Below the pieces are notes generated by a model that did not search any database, had not been told where the DNA came from, and saw only the letters and a program-made list of their open reading frames with translations. A DNA stretch of 64,000 nucleotides. It comes from an uncultured Candidatus Saccharibacteria bacterium (lineage in GTDB: Bacteria > Patescibacteriota > Saccharimonadia > Saccharimonadales > JACQNP01). A program made the translations under genes and the position numbers. Numbering within the stretch: the first letter of the stretch is position 1; every line of letters starts with the position of its first letter. The stretch spans positions 60,017 through 124,016 of the forward strand of contig CAZSZC010000001.1 of NCBI GenBank assembly GCA_964610775.1. Direction: 5' to 3'. This document shows, one piece after another, positions 5,145 to 52,425 of the stretch.

Positions 5145-5264
5145 ACAAAGTCACATGCTATACTGGGGGCATGCAAAAGCACATGACAATTATCGTGTTT
5201 CCAACAACCCTCTATTAGGGCTGATGGTGTTTGCATAAAATAAATTCACAAAAGCATCATCAAG

Positions 5265-5285
5265 CCCCTCCCAAGAGGGGTTTTT
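5265..5285 (+). terminator. Rho-independent terminator-like hairpin
   Basis: CCCCTC (5265-5270), loop CCAA, GAGGGG (5275-5280), then TTTTT (5281-5285). It lies 30 nt upstream of the proS ATG. Confidence 0.55.
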
Positions 5286-5314
5286 ATTAAAACTAATCCA
5301 GAGAATTAAGAGAT

Positions 5315-6565
5315 ATGAGACTATCACAGTCATTCGTAAAAACGCGAAAACAGTTGCCTGCAGATGAGACCGCTCGTAATGCTCAGCTATTGATTCAAGC
5401 TGGCTTTATACATAAGGAAATGGCGGGTGTTTACGCCTACACGCCACTAGGGCTTAGGGTTCTTGAAAATATCAAGCAAATAGTTCGTGAAGAAATGGAC
5501 GCTATTGGTGGTCAAGAAGTTCAAATGACGGTATTGCAGCCAAAAGATATTTGGGAGAAAACAGATCGTTGGGATGATAAAAAAGTCGACAACTGGTTTA
5601 AGACTAAACTAGCAAACGGTACCGAACTTGGTGTTGGATTGACACACGAAGAACCAATCGTAGACTTATTAAAGGATTTTGTGAGCTCGTACAAGGATTT
5701 GCCGATCTATATTTATCAGATTCAATCAAAGTTTCGCAACGAGCTTAGAGCCAAAAGTGGTTTACTAAGAGGTCGTGAATTCGTTATGAAAGACATGTAC
5801 TCACTTGCCCGAACACAGGAAGAACATGATCAACTTTACGAAAAGGCTGCCGAGGCTTACGTAAGAGTTTATGAGCGTCTAGGGATAGGTGATAGTACAT
5901 ACAGAACATACGCCGATGGCGGTATATTTACTGAGAGATTTAGCGACGAGTTTCAAACAGTTAGCCCAATCGGTGAAGACACTATTTATGTGGATCAGAA
6001 GAATAAAGTTGCAGTTAATCAAGAAGTCTCTGATGATGAAAATATGAAAAAGATCGGGCTCAACAAGAAAGATCTTGTTGAAAAACGCGGTGTAGAGGTC
6101 GGTAATATCTTTCCATTAGAGAGTAAGTATTCTGATGGGCTTGATCTTTACTATGTTGACGAGAATGGACAACGACAATCAATTATAATGGGTTGTTACG
6201 GTATCGGTATTAGTCGCTTAGTTGGTCTTTTGGCTGAACATTTTGCAGATGATAAAGGTCTGGTTTGGCCCGAAAATATTGCACCAGCCAAAGTTTATTT
6301 GGCCAGACTGGGTGATTCGGCAGTGACCGTTAAATATGCTGATAAGTTGTATAAAAGATTGATGAACAAAGGAGTTGAAACGCTATATGATGATCGTGAT
6401 ATGCGGCCAGGTGAGAAATTTGCCGATGCAGACCTGATGGGCATACCACATCGAATAGTCATTAGTGATAAAACAATTGCTGCCGATAAGGTTGAATATA
6501 AGCAACGAACCGATGGTGATGCAAAGTTAATCAGCGAGGAAGAGTTTTTAGAAATCGTAAATTAG
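5315..6565 (+). CDS. proS: Prolyl-tRNA synthetase (short form without large INS editing domain)
   Basis: N-terminal MRLSQSFVKTRKQLPADE...AQLLIQAGFI...GVYAYTPLG and class II motifs (FRNE.R...GLLRGREF, GCYGIGISR). At 416 aa it is too short to include the bacterial insertion domain. Confidence 0.9.
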   Translation: MRLSQSFVKTRKQLPADETARNAQLLIQAGFIHKEMAGVYAYTPLGLRVLENIKQIVREEMDAIGGQEVQMTVLQPKDIWEKTDRWDDKKVDNWFKTKLANGTELGVGLTHEEPIVDLLKDFVSSYKDLPIYIYQIQSKFRNELRAKSGLLRGREFVMKDMYSLARTQEEHDQLYEKAAEAYVRVYERLGIGDSTYRTYADGGIFTERFSDEFQTVSPIGEDTIYVDQKNKVAVNQEVSDDENMKKIGLNKKDLVEKRGVEVGNIFPLESKYSDGLDLYYVDENGQRQSIIMGCYGIGISRLVGLLAEHFADDKGLVWPENIAPAKVYLARLGDSAVTVKYADKLYKRLMNKGVETLYDDRDMRPGEKFADADLMGIPHRIVISDKTIAADKVEYKQRTDGDAKLISEEEFLEIVN

Positions 6566-8867: not shown

Positions 8868-9839
8868 ATGACAAATCCTGAGTTTGATCAGGGTGGGGAA
8901 GATGCCTTGCTGAGACAGCAGGAGATTTTCCATGAGAAGGTTCATTTGAACGAGCTACTTATAAATGATTTACACAAAAGAGGTGAGCTAAACGAAAATA
9001 TAACCAAAGGCGTTGCAGAAGATCTTGATGACAATTGTCCTTATATGTATAAACCAGTGCTTATAAGTGGTAGAGCTCTTGTATCAACTTTTGACGAGGG
9101 AACAGGCAATATTACTGGCATGGAATGGATGGACGTAGAGCATACGGGTATACACCTGGGTGTAAATATTCTCACAAACGAGGAATTTGATATGCAATTG
9201 ATTGTTCAACAGGTTCAGGTTGATACCATACAATCCAGACCTTTACCGACTGCCAGCCAGATTACTACACTGTTCGCGTTTTTTGATAATGATGCGAATA
9301 TTACTCCAATAGACGAGATAGAGGGCGTTTTTCATCCGTATTACATGAAAGAGGCGGAAGACGAGGATATCTATAAAGGTTTTAGGGATTTAGTTGATTT
9401 TTCTTCAGATTTTGCTCGCATGCTTAGAGATACTAAATTTAGGCGAATGGACAGAAAGAAGCAACTCAGCTTAGTAAGTAGCGTCATTAGTGATATATCA
9501 AATACAATTAGTATTTCTGAACTCGAGGTAATTATACAGACTCAATACTGCTATGCTCCAGTACTGCGAAATGAAAGACAGGTGGGCGTTGCCGCGATTG
9601 CTGTAGACGATTGTGTTATATCCGGAACGTGTATGGGGGTAGATAGCTTGGAGAGAATAAGATTACCGGTGCAAAAAATAAGAAGTGATAAGCAACTAAT
9701 CGATAAATACGCGGGAATTTGCATTGTGATTGATCCGGATGAATCAACTCGAGTTGGTATGGATTTACTACCGGACCAGGTGCTCTTTATTCCAACAGCA
9801 AGCCAATCATTCGAAATAGAGATTATTCCTACGGATTAG
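8868..9839 (+). CDS. Hypothetical cytoplasmic acidic protein (323 aa)
   Basis: Long ATG ORF with TGCTATACT (-10 at 8854-8859) 8 nt upstream. No motif I can recognise. Confidence 0.5.
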   Translation: MTNPEFDQGGEDALLRQQEIFHEKVHLNELLINDLHKRGELNENITKGVAEDLDDNCPYMYKPVLISGRALVSTFDEGTGNITGMEWMDVEHTGIHLGVNILTNEEFDMQLIVQQVQVDTIQSRPLPTASQITTLFAFFDNDANITPIDEIEGVFHPYYMKEAEDEDIYKGFRDLVDFSSDFARMLRDTKFRRMDRKKQLSLVSSVISDISNTISISELEVIIQTQYCYAPVLRNERQVGVAAIAVDDCVISGTCMGVDSLERIRLPVQKIRSDKQLIDKYAGICIVIDPDESTRVGMDLLPDQVLFIPTASQSFEIEIIPTD

Positions 9840-32733: not shown

Positions 32734-33363
32734 ATGTCAAAATATCCCGAAATTCGAATTAAAGATGCCTGGCTTTTACGAGAAAATGCCTCTAAACATT
32801 TGCATGAACTGTGGGGTAAAGATACGCAATTAGCTGACGATGCCTGGATGGAGAATCGCGTTAAACAGTATCAGAAAGCTTGGCAGACATACGAAAAAAA
32901 GATACTAAATGGCATGTGTGATTTGCTCGGGTTATCTTTTCGTCAAAATGTTATTGATGTATACATAGCACCTTGGTTCGGGGCATTTAGTGATCCATTA
33001 GTTATAGGAGTTATGCGCGAACCTGATCAATTTGTCGATACGCTCACTCACGAACTTATACATCGTCTTTTGACTGATAATAGTAGTATTCCATATGAGA
33101 CAAAATTATTTCCAAATTGGCAAAAACTTTTTGGCAAGAATCATTCATTTACGACTATCGTCCATATACCGGTACATGCAGTACATAAAGCAATATATTT
33201 AGATATACTAAATGAACCCGAAAGACTAGAACGCGATAAAAAAAGTGACATTCAACACAATGCAAAAGACTATATTGCGTCATGGCAGTATGTAGATAGC
33301 AATGATTACCAAATAATTATTGAAAAATTGAGAAACAGTTATAAACATCTAGCAGATAAGTAA
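32734..33363 (+). CDS. Hypothetical protein with HExxH motif (possible metallopeptidase-like)
   Basis: LTHELIHRLL is the only recognisable motif. TGtTATAAT lies 6 nt upstream of the ATG. Confidence 0.4.
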   Translation: MSKYPEIRIKDAWLLRENASKHLHELWGKDTQLADDAWMENRVKQYQKAWQTYEKKILNGMCDLLGLSFRQNVIDVYIAPWFGAFSDPLVIGVMREPDQFVDTLTHELIHRLLTDNSSIPYETKLFPNWQKLFGKNHSFTTIVHIPVHAVHKAIYLDILNEPERLERDKKSDIQHNAKDYIASWQYVDSNDYQIIIEKLRNSYKHLADK

Positions 33364-33506: not shown

Positions 33507-35117
33507 GTGGCAAAGCCGACTAAGTATGTATTTGTAACGGGTGGTGTACTTTCTGGATTAGGAAAGGGTATCACTGCCGCCTCAATCGGAAATCTCCTCA
33601 AAGCTCGTGGCCTAAAAGTAAACATCCAAAAGTGCGATCCATATCTTAACGTTGACGCAGGGTTACTAAACCCGGCTGAGCATGGTGAGTGTTTTGTGAC
33701 TCATGATGGCGCAGAGACAGATTTAGACCTTGGACACTATGAACGATTTCTTGACCAAGAATTAACCAGAGGTAGCTCTTTAATGAGTGGTCGAGTACTG
33801 TTGAATGTTATTCAGGACGAGCGATTTGGCAGATACGAGGGCAAAACAGTACAATTTATTCCGCATGTGACCAAAGCTATTCAAGAGGAGATCCTTAAAG
33901 TTTCTAAGGGATTTGATGTTCATATTGTTGAAATCGGTGGAACAGTTGGCGACTATGAGGGTTTAAGTTTTATTGAAGCTATACGTGAACTTGGGTTTCG
34001 AGTTGGGCGCGAGAATTGCGTATTTGTACATGTAGTTTATGTTCCATATCTTGGTGCAAGTAACGAGTTCAAGACCAAGCCAGCCCAAAATGCCGTGCGT
34101 GAACTCAGGGGTCTTGGCATAGTGCCTGATGTACTGGTTGTACGAAGTGAAGAAACAGCTCCTAAATCGGCGATCAATAAGCTAAGCATGTTTTCGGGAG
34201 TAGCACCCGAGGCCATATCTTTACTGCCTAACGCATCATCAATTTATGAGGTGCCGCTTACACTAGAGGATGCTGGAATAGCGGGAGTTATTGCTAATAA
34301 ACTTGATCTAAAGATGCATAAAGCCAACTTGAAAGAGTGGCGCGCTGTGGTGAAGCGAGCCGTAAATAATAATCCAAAGCATAAACTAACAATTGGTGTT
34401 GTAGCTAAATACATGGATAACACCGATACTTACATGTCGGTCTTTGAGGCATTAAAGTCGGCAGCAATGTGGAACGATACGAAACTCGAGATTAAGTGGA
34501 TTGATGCTGAAAAAATTAAGAAAGATAAAGATATAGGCAAAGAGGCCAAGAACATTGATGGTTTAGTGGTACCTGGTGGTTTTGGTACCCGTGGTCTCGA
34601 AGGTAAAATTGCAAGTGCGCAATACGCCCTTAAAGAGTCAGTACCTTACTTAGGTCTTTGTTTAGGGATGCAGATGGCCGTGATCGCAGCTGCTAGGAAT
34701 TATGGCATTAAAAAAGCTACTTCCATAGAGCTAGATCCAAAGAGTGATGAAAAGGTTATAGACGTCATGGAAGGTCAAGAAGGAAAACAAAACACTGGGG
34801 GCACCATGAGGCTTGGTGATTATCCATGCAAAATTGCTAAGGACAGCAGGGTTGCTAAAATGTACGGAACAACCAGTATAACAGAGCGTCATCGTCATCG
34901 ATGTGAGGCTAATAATAAGTATCGTGATGAGTACGAGTCATGGGGAATACGTGCAGTCGGTACATCTCCTAATGGTAGTTTAGTAGAAATAATAGAAGCA
35001 ATTGATCATCCATTTTTTGTTGCAAGCCAATTTCACCCAGAGTTCAAATCTCGCCCAAATAGACCACACCCAATGTTCGATGGGTTTATAAAAGCCATCT
35101 TGCAAAATACTAAGTAA
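33507..35117 (+). CDS. pyrG: CTP synthase
   Basis: KYVFVTGGVLSGLGKG, DPYLNVDAG.L.P.EHGE.FVT.DG.ETDLDLGHYERF, and a glutaminase domain with GLCLGMQ and HRHR.E.N. GTG start with GAGGGAG SD. Confidence 0.95.
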   Translation: MAKPTKYVFVTGGVLSGLGKGITAASIGNLLKARGLKVNIQKCDPYLNVDAGLLNPAEHGECFVTHDGAETDLDLGHYERFLDQELTRGSSLMSGRVLLNVIQDERFGRYEGKTVQFIPHVTKAIQEEILKVSKGFDVHIVEIGGTVGDYEGLSFIEAIRELGFRVGRENCVFVHVVYVPYLGASNEFKTKPAQNAVRELRGLGIVPDVLVVRSEETAPKSAINKLSMFSGVAPEAISLLPNASSIYEVPLTLEDAGIAGVIANKLDLKMHKANLKEWRAVVKRAVNNNPKHKLTIGVVAKYMDNTDTYMSVFEALKSAAMWNDTKLEIKWIDAEKIKKDKDIGKEAKNIDGLVVPGGFGTRGLEGKIASAQYALKESVPYLGLCLGMQMAVIAAARNYGIKKATSIELDPKSDEKVIDVMEGQEGKQNTGGTMRLGDYPCKIAKDSRVAKMYGTTSITERHRHRCEANNKYRDEYESWGIRAVGTSPNGSLVEIIEAIDHPFFVASQFHPEFKSRPNRPHPMFDGFIKAILQNTK

Positions 35118-35135
35118 TCTGATAGCATAAGCGTC

Positions 35136-35519
35136 ATGGATGCACAAAATCAAAAAAAGGTTTTATTAGTAGAAGACGATGATGCGCTAGCTAGTGTTTA
35201 TCAGACTAGATTGCAAGCAGAGGGTTTCGATGTACAGCGCGTTCCAAATGGCGAAGACGCATTGGCAAAGACGCTTGAATACAAGCCAGATTTAATGTTA
35301 CTCGATGTCATGATGCCTAAGGTCAGTGGCTTTGATGTTTTAGATATTCTTCGAAATACACCCGAAACAGCTAATCTCAAAGTTATTATGCTAACAGCCC
35401 TAAGTCAGGACGCTGATAAAGAACGTGCCGAGAGTCTTGGCGTTGACGACTATCTAGTAAAATCACAAGTAGTTATTGCCGATGTTGTCGAAAAGATCAA
35501 GCAACATCTAGGTGTCTAG
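35136..35519 (+). CDS. Stand-alone response-regulator receiver domain (CheY-like), canonical residues intact
   Basis: VLLVEDDD, DLMLLDVMMP (phospho-acceptor Asp), MLTA (Thr), YLVKS (Lys). No output domain and no kinase nearby. Confidence 0.85.
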   Translation: MDAQNQKKVLLVEDDDALASVYQTRLQAEGFDVQRVPNGEDALAKTLEYKPDLMLLDVMMPKVSGFDVLDILRNTPETANLKVIMLTALSQDADKERAESLGVDDYLVKSQVVIADVVEKIKQHLGV

Positions 35520-35574
35520 TACCGAGTCCATTGTATTGAAATAACGAACTGTAGCATAGTACTATAGAGCGATA

Positions 35575-36066
35575 ATGTTTTCGTATGAACTAGAATTTGA
35601 CAAGGGCTTAAGTGAAAGTCATGAATTTATAGAAACTTACTTGCATGCTTCAAGCGGCTTAGAGACTTTCTTGGCAGACAAACATGATTATGTGTATTCT
35701 ATTGCTTTTCCTGGCCAGCCTTTTGGCCTAGAGATAGTTTCAGAATTACGCAATAACTATAGAGGTGGCGAAGTATCAATAATGCAAATTCCCGATGATC
35801 CAAATCATAGGGTGATTTATTGGGCTGGAGCTTGGCTAATTACTGATGATAAAGGGAAGCCAAAAGAGGATGTTATTTTTTATGCAGTGGAGCATTACAA
35901 TATCGAACAAAACGAATGGCATGAGGATACGAAAGTAGAGCTCGATAGAGCTTATATAATCACGAAAGAGCCAGAAAATATAGTAATAAAACCCCCTAAA
36001 GAATTACCGATAGCAAAAACTAGACTCCAAAAACTAGCCAGAAAATTAATCGTAAACAGAACATAG
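35575..36066 (+). CDS. Hypothetical acidic protein (163 aa)
   Basis: ATG ORF with no recognisable motif. It is the first of three consecutive orphan genes. Confidence 0.45.
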   Translation: MFSYELEFDKGLSESHEFIETYLHASSGLETFLADKHDYVYSIAFPGQPFGLEIVSELRNNYRGGEVSIMQIPDDPNHRVIYWAGAWLITDDKGKPKEDVIFYAVEHYNIEQNEWHEDTKVELDRAYIITKEPENIVIKPPKELPIAKTRLQKLARKLIVNRT

Positions 36067-36092
36067 TAGCTAACTATTTAACTATAACAACA

Positions 36093-36121
36093 TTGACTAA
36101 ATAGCGAAAAACTGCTATACT
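36093..36121 (+). promoter_or_regulatory. Sigma-70-type promoter for the 36147 gene
   Basis: TTGACT (36093-36098), a 17-nt spacer ending in TGc, then TATACT (36116-36121). It is followed by a roughly 20-nt A-rich leader ending AAAAACAAAAAA directly at the ATG. Confidence 0.6.
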
Positions 36122-36146
36122 CTTAGTGTAAAGTAAAAACAAAAAA

Positions 36147-37637
36147 ATGAGCGAAATCCCAGGACCATCACCAGAACAAATGAATGTTGAAGCCTCTTTA
36201 CCGCCAAAGACTGAGGTTTCGGGTTTTGATGCACCAGCAGAAGCTCTGGGTCTACAAAATATGAATTTTACAGTTCGTCGAAATGTTTATGATGGCAATG
36301 GTAATAAACAGGACGGCTTTACTGAAGAAACTGGCTGGTTTGTGCAAAGTACACATGAAATCCAAGACGAGGAGGGCAACCCGATTATGGTTGCTCGTAT
36401 TCGAAAAAATGCTCCTGATCCTGGACAGACGCAGCCCGGTACGCCATATAAGGATATCTTGGCTTCCGAGCTTCAATCTTGGCAACATAATGAAGATGAG
36501 GCAGATATTGAAACAGTACCTAGACAAGAGCTCAATAGGTTAAAGAGCACAATGGGTGCCGGGCGCCAGGATATTGAAGATTCTAGCTCAGTAGAAGAGG
36601 CTAAAAAGTACTGGTACAGCCCAGAAGAAGCTGCAGCGATTGATAAATCAAAGTACTCGCAACACAATGAATCACAAGATCCAGCTGAACAGTGGTGGAA
36701 TCAAGAACAGGCACAAGAGTCCAAAGAATTAGAAGCAAATCCAGAGATATCCAATGAGGTAGCTGAAGAAGTCGGCGAAGTAGCAGTTCCACAAGTGGTA
36801 GATTCATCATTTATAGATGGTGATCCACGTTTGGGTGGCGCTGGAGAACGAATAACCACTGGTACTAGTATAGAATCTGCTAAGCCGAATAGCCAAGATG
36901 CCCTAGGCAATGCACAAGAGAAACAAACAACAAAGTTAAATCCTGATGAGGTAATTGAAGGCGACCCACGAAGCGCTGCGGTAGCTGAGATAAATTCTGA
37001 TTCAATATCCGAAGCAAGGGCTAAAGTTCAAGAAGTGTTTAAAAAGTCGGATCATGAAGCATCTGAAGTAAATAGTGGTACAGAAACCGAAAACTCAACA
37101 AAAGAAGATCTCAAATTGAACCATAAGCAACTGGATATGCTTCAAAGTATTACTCAAGATATTCAGCGTATGTCTGAAAATGGTGCACCACAATCAGAGC
37201 TGGACTATCAAGTTGGCGGTATGGTCAACTCTGTATTGATACAGACTAAAAGACTTGCCGAAGAAGGAAAGCCCGAGCCTGGCCTAGAATTGGCGGTGTT
37301 GTCTTTAGAGTTTGGTGCAGCGAGTCATTCTGATAGAGCCTTTAACGAGATAGCAAAAACTTTAGGAAAAGATGAGCGACGTATGTTTGGTATGTTTGCA
37401 AATCAGTTGGATGGTTTGAAAAGGCAGGGTATTAAGGATCCAGCAGAAGTTACATATCATTTACAGAAACAGATTAGGAACGCATTAGATGCTGTAGAAA
37501 AAGAAAGTAGCGAATTTGATAAGGATAAGATGAGAATGGTAATTATGGGTACTGCACTTGGCGCAGCTGTTGAATTTAAACACAAACAAGCTATTTTTGC
37601 GGAGCTTGAAAGCACATTCTCTAAACAAGGCCATTAA
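36147..37637 (+). CDS. Hypothetical highly acidic protein (496 aa), N-terminal domain shared with the next gene
   Basis: Long ORF with its own promoter. The N-terminal pattern LGL...F.VRR...GW.V.S...K.......L.SWQ is shared with the 37642 product. Confidence 0.5.
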   Translation: MSEIPGPSPEQMNVEASLPPKTEVSGFDAPAEALGLQNMNFTVRRNVYDGNGNKQDGFTEETGWFVQSTHEIQDEEGNPIMVARIRKNAPDPGQTQPGTPYKDILASELQSWQHNEDEADIETVPRQELNRLKSTMGAGRQDIEDSSSVEEAKKYWYSPEEAAAIDKSKYSQHNESQDPAEQWWNQEQAQESKELEANPEISNEVAEEVGEVAVPQVVDSSFIDGDPRLGGAGERITTGTSIESAKPNSQDALGNAQEKQTTKLNPDEVIEGDPRSAAVAEINSDSISEARAKVQEVFKKSDHEASEVNSGTETENSTKEDLKLNHKQLDMLQSITQDIQRMSENGAPQSELDYQVGGMVNSVLIQTKRLAEEGKPEPGLELAVLSLEFGAASHSDRAFNEIAKTLGKDERRMFGMFANQLDGLKRQGIKDPAEVTYHLQKQIRNALDAVEKESSEFDKDKMRMVIMGTALGAAVEFKHKQAIFAELESTFSKQGH

Positions 37638-37641
37638 TATT

Positions 37642-38796
37642 ATGAGTGAAGTATTGATGCAAGCACCTCCACAAAGCGAACTTCAGGTAGAAAAAACTGC
37701 AGACTTAAATGCGCGCCAACTGGGACTTGAACCTGGTTTTATGGTTCGGCGTACATCTGGTGAAATGGAACAAGGCTGGGAAGTAGAAAGTATATCGACA
37801 ATACCAGAAGGTGAGTTATATGCAGGCGAGCAGGCAGCAGTAATAATCAAAGAGACTACCGGTCCGGATGGTAACCCACAGATACTCGAAAAGACAGTGC
37901 GCGCTCACGATTTGCTTTCATGGCAAGAGTCCGTTGAGACGGATCGTAATCAGTCGTCTAGTAAGATGGGCAGCATTGCATTATCTAGTGATGTCGAAAT
38001 AGTACCATTTAGCGTGACAGAAAATAACTTGGACAAAGCTAAGGCCGCCTTTAATGCCTCAAAAGAAAGTGATAACTACGCACACTTATTAGGCGGAAAC
38101 GAACTGGATGATATTTTGGACAAGATATCACCAGCAGAACGCAAGCAATTTGAAGCTTGGCAAGTTGAAAACGCTGCAAATAGACCAAAGAAGTTAGCAG
38201 AAATTTTAGATGAAGCTGAAAAACGCGGCAATAATGTACCGTTCATTGCTAGAGAAAATATTGAAGAACTGAAAAATACTCTTGAAGCAACTGGAGTTAG
38301 TGATGTTTTTGCCACCGAGCCAACCGAGGCTGATATTCAGGAAGGCATTAGTCATGCGCGTGATTTGGTTTCTAGAGGGCTGGCTGGTAGTGAACTTGCC
38401 GCCGAGCCATTTATGAACAACGCGGAATTTCAAAATCTTACGGAGAATGCTATATCCAGACAGCCAATATGGTTGGAGGCACCGATATACGTTAACCCAG
38501 GGTCTATTAATGGTGCTGAAGGATTTGATAGCTGGGAGGGTCGTGGGTTGCATGGTGGGGACGAGGTAGCAATTCGTGAAATCGGTAGTTCTGCAGCGAC
38601 ACGCAGTAGTTTTGAGCAGATAGTAGATTATGCGACTAGAGATACACAGATAAAAACGAATTCTGATGGAGTACTGGACATATTTATTACGAAAAACGGA
38701 GTGAAAACCTACACAATAGGATCGCATCGCGCTGCGGCTGCTAAATTACGTGGCGAGCCACTTGGCTACACAGCCATTACAATATACAGGGTTTAA
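37642..38796 (+). CDS. Hypothetical acidic protein (384 aa) with shared N-terminal domain and ParB/Srx-like C-terminal motif
   Basis: ATG 37642 lies 4 nt after the previous stop; the track ORF extends artificially to 37558. The C-terminus ...TYTIGSHRAAAAKLRGEP resembles the G.HR..A....G core of ParB-N/sulfiredoxin-fold domains. Confidence 0.45.
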   Translation: MSEVLMQAPPQSELQVEKTADLNARQLGLEPGFMVRRTSGEMEQGWEVESISTIPEGELYAGEQAAVIIKETTGPDGNPQILEKTVRAHDLLSWQESVETDRNQSSSKMGSIALSSDVEIVPFSVTENNLDKAKAAFNASKESDNYAHLLGGNELDDILDKISPAERKQFEAWQVENAANRPKKLAEILDEAEKRGNNVPFIARENIEELKNTLEATGVSDVFATEPTEADIQEGISHARDLVSRGLAGSELAAEPFMNNAEFQNLTENAISRQPIWLEAPIYVNPGSINGAEGFDSWEGRGLHGGDEVAIREIGSSAATRSSFEQIVDYATRDTQIKTNSDGVLDIFITKNGVKTYTIGSHRAAAAKLRGEPLGYTAITIYRV

Positions 38797-38810
38797 ATAA
38801 GAGGGTTTTA

Positions 38811-39083
38811 TTATTCTACGGTTACTTCGGTGCGACGAACGGATTTACCACTAAATAGGCGTACTTTGCGCTGTTGATATTTAACAACACCATCTTTTTC
38901 GGCATGAATCGTAAAGTTACGGCTCATGAATGTGCCTTTACCAGCTCTTTTAGTAGCACCAGTTTGTCGAACTATAATCTGACCAGTGTTTACTTTTTCA
39001 CCACCAAATAACTTAACACCAAGTCGTTGACCGGGACTGTCATGAACGTTCTTACTTGAGCCACCTGCTTTTACTTTAGACAT
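38811..39083 (-). CDS. rpmA: 50S ribosomal protein L27
   Basis: MSKVKAGGSSKNVHDSPGQRLGVK.FGG..V..G.IIVRQ.G........G...D.T..A..DG.V. Confidence 0.9.
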   Translation of the reverse strand: MSKVKAGGSSKNVHDSPGQRLGVKLFGGEKVNTGQIIVRQTGATKRAGKGTFMSRNFTIHAEKDGVVKYQQRKVRLFSGKSVRRTEVTVE

Positions 39084-39085
39084 AA

Positions 39086-40264
39086 TTACTTCCTTGTTAG
39101 TACTACGAGTTCGCGGCCGACAAATTGGCCTTCGCGGTGATAAATAAGTTTATCATTCTCCGCATGAACAAAACTCTGACGAGTATACCCCAATTCCTCG
39201 AGAGAATCAAGCACTTTAAGGTGTTTAAACCCATTATTAGTTTTCCAGGCAGGTACAGCGATACACATCCGGAAGCCCGGTTTGGTTTGTTGAGCTACAT
39301 TCAGAAGAAATTTTCGGTGAATAACATCGACGTCTCGCATAACTTCTGATAATACTTCTATGTGTGGAGTAGAGGAGAAAGGGCGGCCCAAATACGTCTC
39401 AGCTGCTATAAAATCAAAATTTTTATGCCATCTGTATGATGTCGCGTCGCCGATCTCTGCTAAACAGGTAAATGAGGTTAGGTTAAGTTTATTAGTAAGC
39501 CAATCGATATTGTAATTTGTATATTCAATCATTCTGTTGTCGATATCTGTGCCGTAAACATTGAAACCCATTAGGGCTGCTTCCTGCAGTATTACGCCAG
39601 TGCCACAGAAGGGGTCAAGTAGAGTAGCCCCATGGTAATTACTACCATGTGAACCAATGTTTACGATAATTTGTGCTAGCTTCGGAGGTAGCATGCCAAC
39701 TCTTGCATCGCGTTTGGGTCGTGCTTGGTCGCGCGCGGCATAAGCGTCAATATCTTGTATTGATACGGTTTGTGCTAGGTGAGTTTGATTTCCGTCTCGC
39801 AATAAAATAAGTTCCCAGCCATTTGATGATGTAAGTTTGTTACGAAGTACCTGAGCCGCGTTAAGCTCATTAGCGGTATTTGGTACTATCCTGACTGATT
39901 TGCCAGTTTCGCGAATCACTTTCTTTACTTTAAGCGCAGAGGCATTGATTTGTCTTGGATTAATATTGAATCCGTATACACTTACGCCAACATGCAACTT
40001 TCCTTCGGGTACAAACTTAACAAATTGTGGGGCAGCTTCTAGTAAATAACCTTGGACTTTACTCCAGTCTGAGTAGGGTAGGGTTGTGAGTAATTTACAC
40101 ACACGCGTACTGCCACCGAGTCTAGAAAAGGGTATATAGTCGGCAGGTTTGGCCGACAAGATAGCGAGCTTGTTTACTGGTTTTATCAGATCAGATCCAA
40201 TAAGACTCTCTAGTTCGGCAACACCAATATCTGACTGGCGTCCAAGTATATATAGCGATTTCAT
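39086..40264 (-). CDS. SAM-dependent methyltransferase, UPF0020/Trm11-like (THUMP-less N-domain)
   Basis: MLPPKLAQIIVNI, LLDPFCGTGVILQEAALMG (motif I) and YGTDID. Motif IV reads AETYLGRPF rather than the usual DPPYG. Its stop is 2 nt from the rpmA start. Confidence 0.6.
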   Translation of the reverse strand: MKSLYILGRQSDIGVAELESLIGSDLIKPVNKLAILSAKPADYIPFSRLGGSTRVCKLLTTLPYSDWSKVQGYLLEAAPQFVKFVPEGKLHVGVSVYGFNINPRQINASALKVKKVIRETGKSVRIVPNTANELNAAQVLRNKLTSSNGWELILLRDGNQTHLAQTVSIQDIDAYAARDQARPKRDARVGMLPPKLAQIIVNIGSHGSNYHGATLLDPFCGTGVILQEAALMGFNVYGTDIDNRMIEYTNYNIDWLTNKLNLTSFTCLAEIGDATSYRWHKNFDFIAAETYLGRPFSSTPHIEVLSEVMRDVDVIHRKFLLNVAQQTKPGFRMCIAVPAWKTNNGFKHLKVLDSLEELGYTRQSFVHAENDKLIYHREGQFVGRELVVLTRK

Positions 40265-49849: not shown

Positions 49850-50329
49850 ATGGAATATGTATTGTTTGATCCAATTGATTTGCGAGAAATTGAAAGCATG
49901 GCGGAGTCTGCTGCGACTATTTTTCATACGATGCCAGAGGAGTTTTATTACGATAGTAATTTGTCCAGTACTATAATCGAACCTATTAAAATACGATCAG
50001 AGGAATTGCTTGGTCCTTGGGCTTGCAGAGTGATAACAACTACATCTATAGGTTGTAACATTGATGGCGTTACAGATCACATAAATGGTGAGGATTGGGC
50101 ATCATTTTTTGGTCATTGGGTTGATGTTGATGTTCATGTATTCCCGAGCGTAGAGTCTAGTCCACTGACTCAAGATTTGGATGGCAAGATTGTGCCTAGT
50201 TTGGTATTTGAGACATTTGATGATAATAAATTTGACGGTACCATTGCTCAAACATACCTACATGTAGCTGTTCCTCTTCTGGGTACGCTAGTAGATATAC
50301 AACGTTATGGGATAGTCTACGGCGATTAG
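49850..50329 (+). CDS. Hypothetical acidic protein (159 aa)
   Basis: ATG ORF with CATAAT 8 nt upstream. No motif. Confidence 0.4.
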   Translation: MEYVLFDPIDLREIESMAESAATIFHTMPEEFYYDSNLSSTIIEPIKIRSEELLGPWACRVITTTSIGCNIDGVTDHINGEDWASFFGHWVDVDVHVFPSVESSPLTQDLDGKIVPSLVFETFDDNKFDGTIAQTYLHVAVPLLGTLVDIQRYGIVYGD

Positions 50330-51510: not shown

Positions 51511-52425
51511 GTGATAGAAACAATTTTTGAGAGGTTTAGCGAGTTTAATACCAGTGTTATGTTAAGTGCAGAAGCATCGACGCATGGTGAAATTCTTAGA
51601 GATAAGATACGCTATGAGCAATACTGTTCGATAAGCGAGGGGCTGCCACATTCAGAACTTAGTGCCGATAGACAAATCGAAGTGTCTACTACATGGGAGG
51701 GAATACTCGACGCAGACGTCAATAATTTCCAGCATAACGTTGTTACGGCGCTGATTGGCCGTTGTGTATGTAAATTAGATGGCTGTAGCGATGAGGTTGC
51801 TGATACTGTGGAGTTATTGTCACTGGTGCACGATCTGCCAGAAGCCATATCCGGAGACCTTACATATGACGATGCACAGAAACTCGGTATCGATGGTCAT
51901 AGAAATGATAATAGGGCATTGGGGCAAATGCTTATTGAGGAAGACTTTCCGACTATAACTCCAGAAATTGCTGCAAAAATCGAAGACTACTTAAACGACT
52001 CTAAACAAAAACAACCGGAAACCGAAGTAGGGCAGGAGTTTGAAATAACTGAGCGTATAGGATATGTGCGCACGGCTCTCATAGCTCAAGATGTTGTGAA
52101 TAGTAGGTCTATTAATTTAATAGACAAAGACCAGGTTCATCGACTAGATTGGCTAACCGAAAATGTATTGTCAAACCAAATTCCTCGCCTGATTGAGTTA
52201 GCTTCTAGTTTTGAGAGTGCTAGATGGTTTTTGGAGGTTTGTGAAGAGCGAATCAGTGAAGCCATATTTAGGTTAAACGATGATAAAACTAGGTCTGAAA
52301 GGATTTCGCCTTACTACGAAGCTCGAGGTGATGATGTTAAATCTAGAGAATACAAATGGGATGATTTTATTGCTGCTTGGATTAATTATGACATGCAGAT
52401 TAACAGTGATATGGTACCGGCTTAA
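51511..52425 (+). CDS. HD-superfamily phosphohydrolase-like protein (YfbR/HD_3-like core, tentative)
   Basis: FQHNVVTA...LLSLVHDLPEAISGDLTYDD gives an H...HD..E..GD pattern. GTG start 7 nt after AAGGAGA. Confidence 0.45.
   Translation: MIETIFERFSEFNTSVMLSAEASTHGEILRDKIRYEQYCSISEGLPHSELSADRQIEVSTTWEGILDADVNNFQHNVVTALIGRCVCKLDGCSDEVADTVELLSLVHDLPEAISGDLTYDDAQKLGIDGHRNDNRALGQMLIEEDFPTITPEIAAKIEDYLNDSKQKQPETEVGQEFEITERIGYVRTALIAQDVVNSRSINLIDKDQVHRLDWLTENVLSNQIPRLIELASSFESARWFLEVCEERISEAIFRLNDDKTRSERISPYYEARGDDVKSREYKWDDFIAAWINYDMQINSDMVPA

Follow-up and report, generated by a model that had tools for sequence, protein, structure and literature searches.

A previously undescribed Saccharibacteria protein family with a probable divergent ParB/sulfiredoxin-type domain, encoded in a variable slot of a conserved chromosomal block

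Three consecutive open reading frames (ORFs) on the forward strand of a 64-kb stretch of contig CAZSZC010000001.1, from an uncultured Candidatus Saccharibacteria bacterium (the whole stretch is referred to below as the window), code for proteins of 163 amino acids (aa; ORF A, 35575-36066), 496 aa (ORF B, 36147-37637) and 384 aa (ORF C, 37642-38796). ORF C is the local orthologue of a previously undescribed protein family, restricted so far to the Saccharibacteria/Patescibacteria and present in no curated library, and its conserved C-terminal domain (C-domain) probably adopts a divergent fold of the ParB/sulfiredoxin (Srx) type, as judged from structural scores which are consistent but weak and do not prove membership. 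The locus is a variable slot inside a core chromosomal block and not a mobile island. The favoured reading, that ORF C is the resident gene of this slot and encodes a ParB/Srx-type, nucleoside triphosphate (NTP)-binding cytoplasmic regulatory protein, is given a probability of roughly 0.45 as a whole. The ORF coordinates and lengths are exactly those of the original prediction for this region, and all of the peptide strings quoted there are present.

The size of the ORF C family was revealed by an exhaustive representative search with the C-family profile, which yielded 215 clusters (50% identity) at E <= 1e-3, 40 of them at E <= 1e-30; the family thus comprises at least 215 clusters at this identity level, a lower bound. 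A word-indexed protein search had returned six homologues of C and two of B, and a profile run at least one more. All of the named sources of family members are Saccharibacteria or Patescibacteria genomes, and a scan of the GTDB species representatives, which rests on two peptide patterns and likewise gives a lower bound, identified nine loci, all in Saccharibacteria/Patescibacteria metagenome-assembled genomes (MAGs). The initial description of the three proteins as orphans is accurate with regard to curated collections, where no credible match for A, B or C was found in Pfam, NCBIfam, PADLOC or PHROGs (weak matches to SdbC_C, E 0.06, and Phosphorylase, E 0.019, were rejected as noise), but not otherwise: C belongs to the large family described here, B has two close homologues and a fragment, and A has one divergent homologue. 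In one Saccharimonadales MAG (L013, 5260-6400), a C-domain gene is split over two overlapping frames, with HMM (hidden Markov model) positions 2-49 in the ORF at 5260-6054 and positions 62-118 in the ORF at 5918-6400, and is either a pseudogene caused by a frameshift or the product of an assembly error.

Residue conservation was derived from an alignment of 136 family members. The conserved part comprises the C-terminal ~130 aa, extended to ~200 aa in most members, and many family matches begin at profile position ~178. In ORF C, the conserved core corresponds to the C-domain (residues 255-384; 38404-38793, forward strand), which is preceded by a middle region (residues 129-254; 38026-38403, forward strand) that is mostly helical in a high-confidence model and of which the second half is kept in most members. 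Ten positions are conserved in at least 90% of the sequences: W298, G300, S323, I327, A331, P338, H362, R363, A366 and A367. W298 is invariant and G300 at least 90% conserved across alignments A3 to A5, and both fall in the W298-E-G300-R301-G302 loop (38533-38547, forward strand), for which the family motif is SWxGRG. The last four positions lie in the S361-H362-R363-AAAAKLRGEP373 helix (38722-38760, forward strand; hereafter the HR helix), which follows a beta-hairpin and appears to be the counterpart of GGCHRYAAYQQL in Srx and of GERRxRA in ParB. A G-x-H-R-x-x-A-x-x-x-x-G core had been singled out in this helix beforehand on account of its resemblance to the ParB/Srx motif; the core is present and is located in the most conserved part of the family, with its central residues among the ten listed above, but the flanking G360 and G371 are not conserved.

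The structural model of the C-domain points consistently, but with weak scores, to the ParB/Srx fold. The full-length AlphaFold2 model of C has a pLDDT (predicted local distance difference test) score of 88.7, and the model of the domain alone has a pLDDT of 94.6 and a pTM (predicted template modelling score) of 0.86. When the latter was compared by Foldseek with ~350,000 PDB chains, 12 of the top 15 matches were Srx, ParB or Noc structures, including human (3cyi, 1xw3, 1xw4 and 7lj1) and Arabidopsis (6ky4) Srx, as well as the ParB/Noc entries 7bm8, 6sdk, 7bnr, 7bnk and 7ol9, the last of these being Noc. The best match is 3cyi, Srx with ATP (probability 0.92, 116 columns), and the ParB/Srx matches as a group span ~100-116 columns with E-values of 0.027-1.3 and template modelling (TM) scores of 0.3-0.49. 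In the model, the predicted element order is a strand, a helix that includes S323, a hairpin, the HR helix and a further strand, an order which we take to match that of the Srx/ParB core.

Sequence-based comparisons place the HR helix in the same register. Profile-profile alignment by hhalign of the C family with a small, verified ParB/Srx alignment matched the beta-hairpin and HR helix over 25 columns (P 0.013), while BLASTP of C against Srx gave an alignment of 73 columns ending at the same H-R (E 0.13). In these two alignments, both of them weak, the family string S-H-R-A-A stands opposite G-C-H-R-Y-A-A of Srx, and the basic motif at the N-terminus of the post-hairpin helix, formed by H362 and R363, stands opposite H100-R101 of Srx and the ERR motif of ParB. 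The three ParB control sequences were verified as ParB_N proteins, with scores of 1e-36 to 1e-40 on that model, and that of Srx was confirmed from the PDB. A different interpretation of the string S-H-R...L-R-x-E-P-L, as the H-box (S-H-E-L-R-T-P-L) of a histidine kinase, was rejected: the helix comes after a beta-hairpin, within an alpha/beta domain, and is not part of a dimerisation and histidine phosphotransfer (DHp) hairpin, and there is no HisKA match.

The same resemblance, taken at the level of the fold only, would also fit an ordinary ParB/Noc-type CTP clamp acting in DNA segregation, or a sulfiredoxin that repairs peroxiredoxin. Both are, however, very improbable. C is not a sulfiredoxin, since the catalytic Cys is missing, its position being occupied by Ser361 in C and by Asn, Ser, Ala or Gly in the family as a whole. 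Nor is it a ParB clamp, because it has neither the GERRxR motif nor a helix-turn-helix (HTH) domain, no parA gene is located nearby and an isoelectric point (pI) as low as 4.6 hardly suits a DNA clamp. A ParB C-terminal domain and a ParB_N match are likewise lacking, and the gene's neighbours are pyrG, a receiver gene, rpmA and a methyltransferase gene.

The ParB/Srx fold is an NTP-binding module: ParB, Noc, KorB and VirB use it as a CTP-dependent switch, and Srx, SerK and SbnI for ATP-dependent phosphoryl transfer. Among these proteins, Srx gives the best structural match to the C-domain model, over 108-116 columns with probabilities of up to 0.92, and resembles C in having the fold but no HTH or dimerisation domain. 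C differs from it not only in the replacement of the catalytic Cys, but also in the low identity (~15%, at TM scores below 0.5), in the additional N-terminal helix and hairpin and the W-x-G-R-G loop of its C-domain, and in its occurrence inside a 384-aa multidomain protein. The N-terminal CTPase domain of ParB, Noc, KorB and VirB (PF02195) forms the second group of structural matches and shares the basic motif that opens the post-hairpin helix. The C family differs from it in lacking PF02195 matches (none of 136 members), the GERRxR motif, HTH and dimerisation domains and a parA partner. In addition, C is acidic, and its gene is chromosomal, located in the core and not carried by a mobile element. 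The serine kinases SerK and SbnI show that the fold can serve as an enzyme module outside DNA segregation and without HTH (PMC12704722) and provide a model for a phosphoryl-donor variant of the favoured reading, but none of the sequence or structure comparisons gave a SerK or SbnI match to C. Srx itself is nearly absent from bacteria other than the cyanobacteria, and ParB/Srx folds have been described that are fused to lineage-specific domains and bind CTP, ATP or GTP (PMC12704722).

Several results weigh against the favoured reading as far as the fold is concerned. The Foldseek scores all lie below the usual limits (E >= 0.027, TM < 0.5, root-mean-square deviation 5.6 Å), and the full-length model of C gave no ParB/Srx match, nor any significant match, in the PDB; against BFVD, the same model matched a phage 'ParB/Sulfiredoxin' protein only weakly (rank 6, E 0.097). 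Pfam ParB_N matches none of the 136 members, even at E <= 1, and PDB sequence searches with the single C sequence and with profiles of 7, 136 and 62 sequences returned neither ParB nor Srx, the best matches, to a Cna B-type domain (E 0.096) and the ABA-1 allergen (E 0.33), being dismissed as chance. The hhalign probability for ParB/Srx is only 3%, the family has neither the catalytic Cys of Srx nor the GERRxR of ParB, and in a few members H-T or N-T-R replaces H-R. The ParB/Srx resemblance proposed in the original prediction is partly supported, by the 12 of 15 top PDB matches and by the HR register in hhalign and BLASTP, but at scores that are all sub-threshold and with no ParB_N match across the family.

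These sub-threshold scores, together with the failure of Pfam and PDB sequence searches to find ParB/Srx even when profiles built from 61 to 136 sequences were used, and the extra N-terminal elements predicted in the model (a helix and a long beta-hairpin, domain residues 6-30), would suit a different explanation. According to this, the fold of the C-domain is specific to the lineage and resembles ParB/Srx by convergence, or too distantly for a function to be predicted, the H-R helix and W-x-G-R-G loop bind a protein or some other ligand, and C serves as a structural or adaptor factor of the Saccharibacteria. We consider this rather unlikely, given that ParB/Srx entries hold 12 of the 15 top places among ~350,000 PDB chains, over ~100-116 columns each, and that three independent methods (hhalign, Foldseek and BLASTP) place the HR helix in the same register.

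Upstream of the C-domain, C shares an N-terminal module (N-module) with ORF B. In C, this module (residues 19-100; 37696-37941, forward strand) is a small beta-rich domain with the consensus LGLxDGxFxVxRSxGxxExGW...K.V...LLSWQ, and in B it extends from residue 27 to 119 (36225-36503, forward strand). The relationship, which had been noted in the original prediction, is confirmed by profile-profile comparison of the B and C families (hhalign probability 97.6%, E 3.6e-12, 122 columns; B 18-161, C 8-142), though direct BLASTP of B against C is weak (E 0.14). An HMM made from the C-orthologues alone matches B at 8e-17, and BLASTP of B against P0002, a C-orthologue encoded at 491-1696 of L001 and 61% identical to C over residues 84-384, gives an E-value of 1e-24. 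The core of the module comprises ~80 aa with the consensus PAxxLGLxDGxFxVxRSxGxxExGW...V.I.K...K.V...LLSWQ, in which one Arg (R19) and one Trp (W28; module numbering) are invariant, and in the AlphaFold model of C it is predicted to contain strands at residues 47-53, 64-73 and 79-87 and a helix at 88-93. The N-module profile had no match among PDB sequences. A Foldseek match of the full-length model to Pur-alpha (49 columns, probability 0.89) probably concerns the small N-module and is too short and weak to use. Within the window, the module is confined to B and C. The P0002 N-module carries the 10-12-residue insertion of B rather than the shorter form of C, a sequence feature which suggests that adjacent paralogues exchange modules.

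Domain architectures were counted in 153 collected proteins. The C-domain occurs alone or with unassigned heads in 114 of these, and is combined with the N-module in 13, with a C-terminal Fic domain in four, with an FHA domain in two and with a second uncharacterised C-terminal domain, 'D2', in two. The N-module is joined to D2 in nine proteins, while in a further nine it has other tails or is repeated in tandem. The four Fic proteins were confirmed individually (five matches in the 136-member scan), as were the two FHA-C-domain proteins (three FHA matches in the same scan). D2, which has the consensus RVRRNTQKNPN...SREYVALLxLSMxDGTF...GQHRxAA, is carried by P0104, P0117, P0125, P0128, P0132, P0136, P0145, P0148, P0149, P0070 and P0116, joined to the N-module or to the C-domain, and is not encoded in the window. 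It ends in a G-x-H-R-x-A-A motif of its own; hhalign of D2 against the C-domain and against ParB/Srx aligned this motif alone (P ~0.02), and the relationship is unproven. The recurrence of an ~80-aa N-module with variable partners, as had been foreseen, is thus borne out by its association with the C-domain, D2, the C-terminal region of B, other tails and tandem copies. The accompanying suggestion that the C-terminal domains are variable payloads does not apply to the C-domain, which is the conserved part of the main family.

The genomic surroundings of the family gene are conserved across the Saccharibacteria. The syntenic block comprises ftsX, a CHAP gene, an S41 peptidase gene, pyrG, a CheY-like receiver gene, the family gene and, on the opposite strand, rpmA, and continues with a UPF0020-type methyltransferase gene (opposite strand), an LPG-synthase-like gene, xseA and xseB. 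In the window, the receiver is a single-domain protein (35136-35519, forward strand; Pfam Response_reg, E 3.3e-24), and its gene lies directly 5' of the slot in all syntenic genomes examined. A family gene occupies the slot in 13 contexts, directly after the receiver gene in 12 of them (the window, the P0003 and P0116 contigs, and L002, L003, L006, L010, L018, L020, L022, L023 and L024); in the thirteenth, L001, the sequence is cut upstream, but the same genes follow downstream. The slot genes differ in architecture: P0070 consists of the C-domain and D2, P0116 of the C-domain, N-module and D2, P0048 of the C-domain and Fic, and P0099 of the N-module, the helical region and a 'DSGFHR' tail, while P0064 and the L010 gene are short proteins with the C-domain only. 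With its Fic and FHA fusions and its constant place behind the receiver gene, the family may have a role in protein modification or signalling.

To the points listed above against the favoured reading may be added two concerning this context. Four C-domain genes, in L008, L009, L012 and L013, stand in other surroundings, where neither a receiver gene nor pyrG or rpmA could be recognised (L011, on a 1.5-kb contig, is uninformative on context), and the link to the receiver may be synteny only, the whole block being conserved. No histidine kinase (HisKA/HATPase_c) or histidine phosphotransfer (HPt) domains were found by Pfam in C or the 136 members. The presence of pyrG, which codes for a CTP synthase, two genes upstream of a possible CTP-binding fold was taken as a coincidence within the syntenic block. 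Literature searches on Saccharibacteria in combination with ParB, or with response-regulator synteny, returned nothing relevant.

Two neighbouring genes of the block may be mentioned here. Between the S41 peptidase gene and pyrG, an ORF at 32734-33363 (forward strand) encodes a 209-aa protein with an HExxH string (THELIHRLL) and no Pfam match; the corresponding spot is empty in L002 and L003 and occupied by a Tricorn-like gene in L020, and looks like a second small variable spot of the block. Two genes 3' of C, and co-oriented with rpmA, is the gene for the UPF0020/N6_N4-type methyltransferase (39086-40264, reverse strand), the proximity of which may be a coincidence within the block. Over the window as a whole, neither a tRNA gene nor an Rfam family at gathering score was found; nearly all long ORFs are on the forward strand and the GC skew is positive in all but one 2-kb interval, which fits a single long leading-strand stretch.

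Within the slot, ORF C is preceded by two genes of narrower distribution. ORF B was found only in close relatives, as P0007 and P0008 (82-98% identical), and as a C-terminal fragment located upstream of P0002 in L001 (47% identical). By sequence comparison, it is a lineage-specific paralogue which shares only the N-terminal region (~140 aa) with C, followed by a long acidic middle (~residues 120-320) that varies by insertions and deletions, and by a C-terminal region (~residues 341-496; 37167-37634, forward strand) that is conserved in, and unique to, the B lineage, as seen also in the L001 fragment. With hhalign, the C-terminal ~155 aa of B gave no significant match to other domains of the family. 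An alignment of 'AASHSDRA' in this region with 'GSHRA' is not significant (P 0.039), and the motif is not conserved in the L001 homologue.

ORF A is hypervariable and lineage-restricted, and would be an accessory gene of the slot. Identical copies are found on eight contigs, and its sole homologue, an ORF of 171 aa that occupies the corresponding place in strain L018, is 34% identical (E 4e-29), set against 90% for pyrG, 98% for the receiver, 82% for B and 94% for the N-terminal part of C, so that A differs sharply between flanks that are 82-98% identical. No further relative of A was found, a metagenome scan giving the identical contig only. ORF A is a real gene, and is either very fast-evolving or has been replaced by a distant allele. 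In other genomes, the slot holds unrelated small ORFs that are related neither to A nor to each other.

The composition and arrangement of the three ORFs are largely as first described. B and C are strongly acidic (pI 4.61 and 4.60), compared with a median pI of 6.6 among the 53 ORFs of the window, but A, which had been described in the same terms, is only moderately so (pI 5.15). Three other forward-strand ORFs in the window, at 49850-50329, 51511-52425 and 8868-9839, are equally or more acidic than B and C (pI 4.17, 4.43 and 4.44, respectively). The highest Kyte-Doolittle mean over a 19-residue window is ~0.8 for A, B and C, which indicates that none of them has a transmembrane segment or a hydrophobic signal core, as had been proposed. 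The open frame of ORF C begins upstream, at a TTG codon at position 37558; its orthologues start at the methionine of MSEVLMQ. The near-consensus sigma-70-like promoter predicted 5' of ORF B is present at 36093-36121 (forward strand) as TTGACT, a spacer of 17 nucleotides and a TG-extended TATACT. It agrees with the consensus at 10 of 12 positions, a consensus match only, and is the best-scoring site within 35000-39200, where the total of promoter-like sites is not above that in shuffled sequence. This candidate promoter and the gap of 4 nucleotides between the B stop and the C start make it probable that the two genes are co-transcribed from 36093. On the other side, rpmA converges on ORF C, 14 nucleotides past its stop codon.

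The variability of the slot has to be weighed against a further explanation, namely that the locus takes part in epibiont-host or phage conflict; the original prediction had speculatively cast these proteins as effector or conflict proteins. The N-module would then be a delivery or adaptor element, the C-terminal parts (a ParB-like nuclease or NTPase, Fic or D2) would be payloads, and small ORFs like A would be immunity proteins or antagonists. The hypervariability of ORF A between strains with 82-98% identical flanks, the changing architectures, the fusions to Fic and the presence of unrelated small ORFs in the slot of other genomes all fit such a role and count against the favoured reading. 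The N-module occurs with at least five different C-terminal arrangements and also in tandem copies, some members have Fic domains with weak Doc/SoFic-type matches, and one distant member has a sub-threshold match to T7SS_signal. However, A, B and C are without signal peptide, transmembrane segment or, according to Pfam, any known secretion domain, and the gene keeps a fixed place in a syntenic core block. No relatives were found in phage and plasmid (tblastn) or IMG/VR collections, nor were there matches to PADLOC or PHROG families. In addition, it is the C-terminal domain that is conserved and the N-terminal parts that vary, which is the reverse of the situation in polymorphic toxins, and no immunity-type gene occurs 3' of C, where rpmA converges. 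A conflict role has no direct support and is fairly unlikely, but stands as a live rival to the favoured reading. Fic/Doc AMPylation proteins, which bear on both this explanation and the favoured reading, resemble the family in that Fic lies C-terminal to the C-domain in the four confirmed members, with P0048 in the receiver-adjacent slot, but A, B and C themselves are without a Fic domain according to Pfam.

Under the favoured reading, of a cytoplasmic ParB/Srx-type protein resident in the slot, the C-domain would hold an NTP at the N-terminal end of the H362-R363 helix, aided by S323 and the W-x-G-R-G loop. The nucleotide may act as a conformational switch, on the model of ParB, or donate a phosphoryl group, on that of Srx, SerK and SbnI, while the N-module and helical region of C may provide partner recognition or specificity. 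C would be a cytoplasmic protein, and would probably take part in a circuit of regulation or protein modification tied to the upstream receiver. ORF B would have kept the N-terminal ~140 aa and acquired both its variable, acidic middle and a new C-terminal part, and ORF A would be a fast-evolving accessory gene of the slot. A bolder version of this reading, in which the fixed slot after the CheY-like receiver encodes fast-diversifying NTP-dependent enzymes or switches of the ParB/Srx fold, in N-module, D2, Fic and FHA variants, as partners of the receiver and hence as a new signalling output or phosphotransfer device of genome-reduced epibionts, modulated by hypervariable genes like A, is speculative and distinctly unlikely.

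The genomes of Saccharibacteria and other Patescibacteria are small, and much of their gene content lacks annotation. What is added here is a family of at least 215 clusters for which there is no Pfam or NCBIfam model, with a domain map consisting of the N-module, helical region, C-domain and D2. Recent work has revealed a versatility of the ParB/Srx fold that goes far beyond DNA segregation (PMC12704722). The published survey of ParB folds searched PF02195 at the gathering threshold (PMC12704722), and the ORF C family would therefore have been missed. If the fold assignment is true, the known range of the ParB/Srx fold would extend into the candidate phyla radiation, and the fixed receiver-adjacent position of the slot, together with the rapid turnover of architectures within it, makes this locus worth examining for lineage-specific regulation or host interaction.

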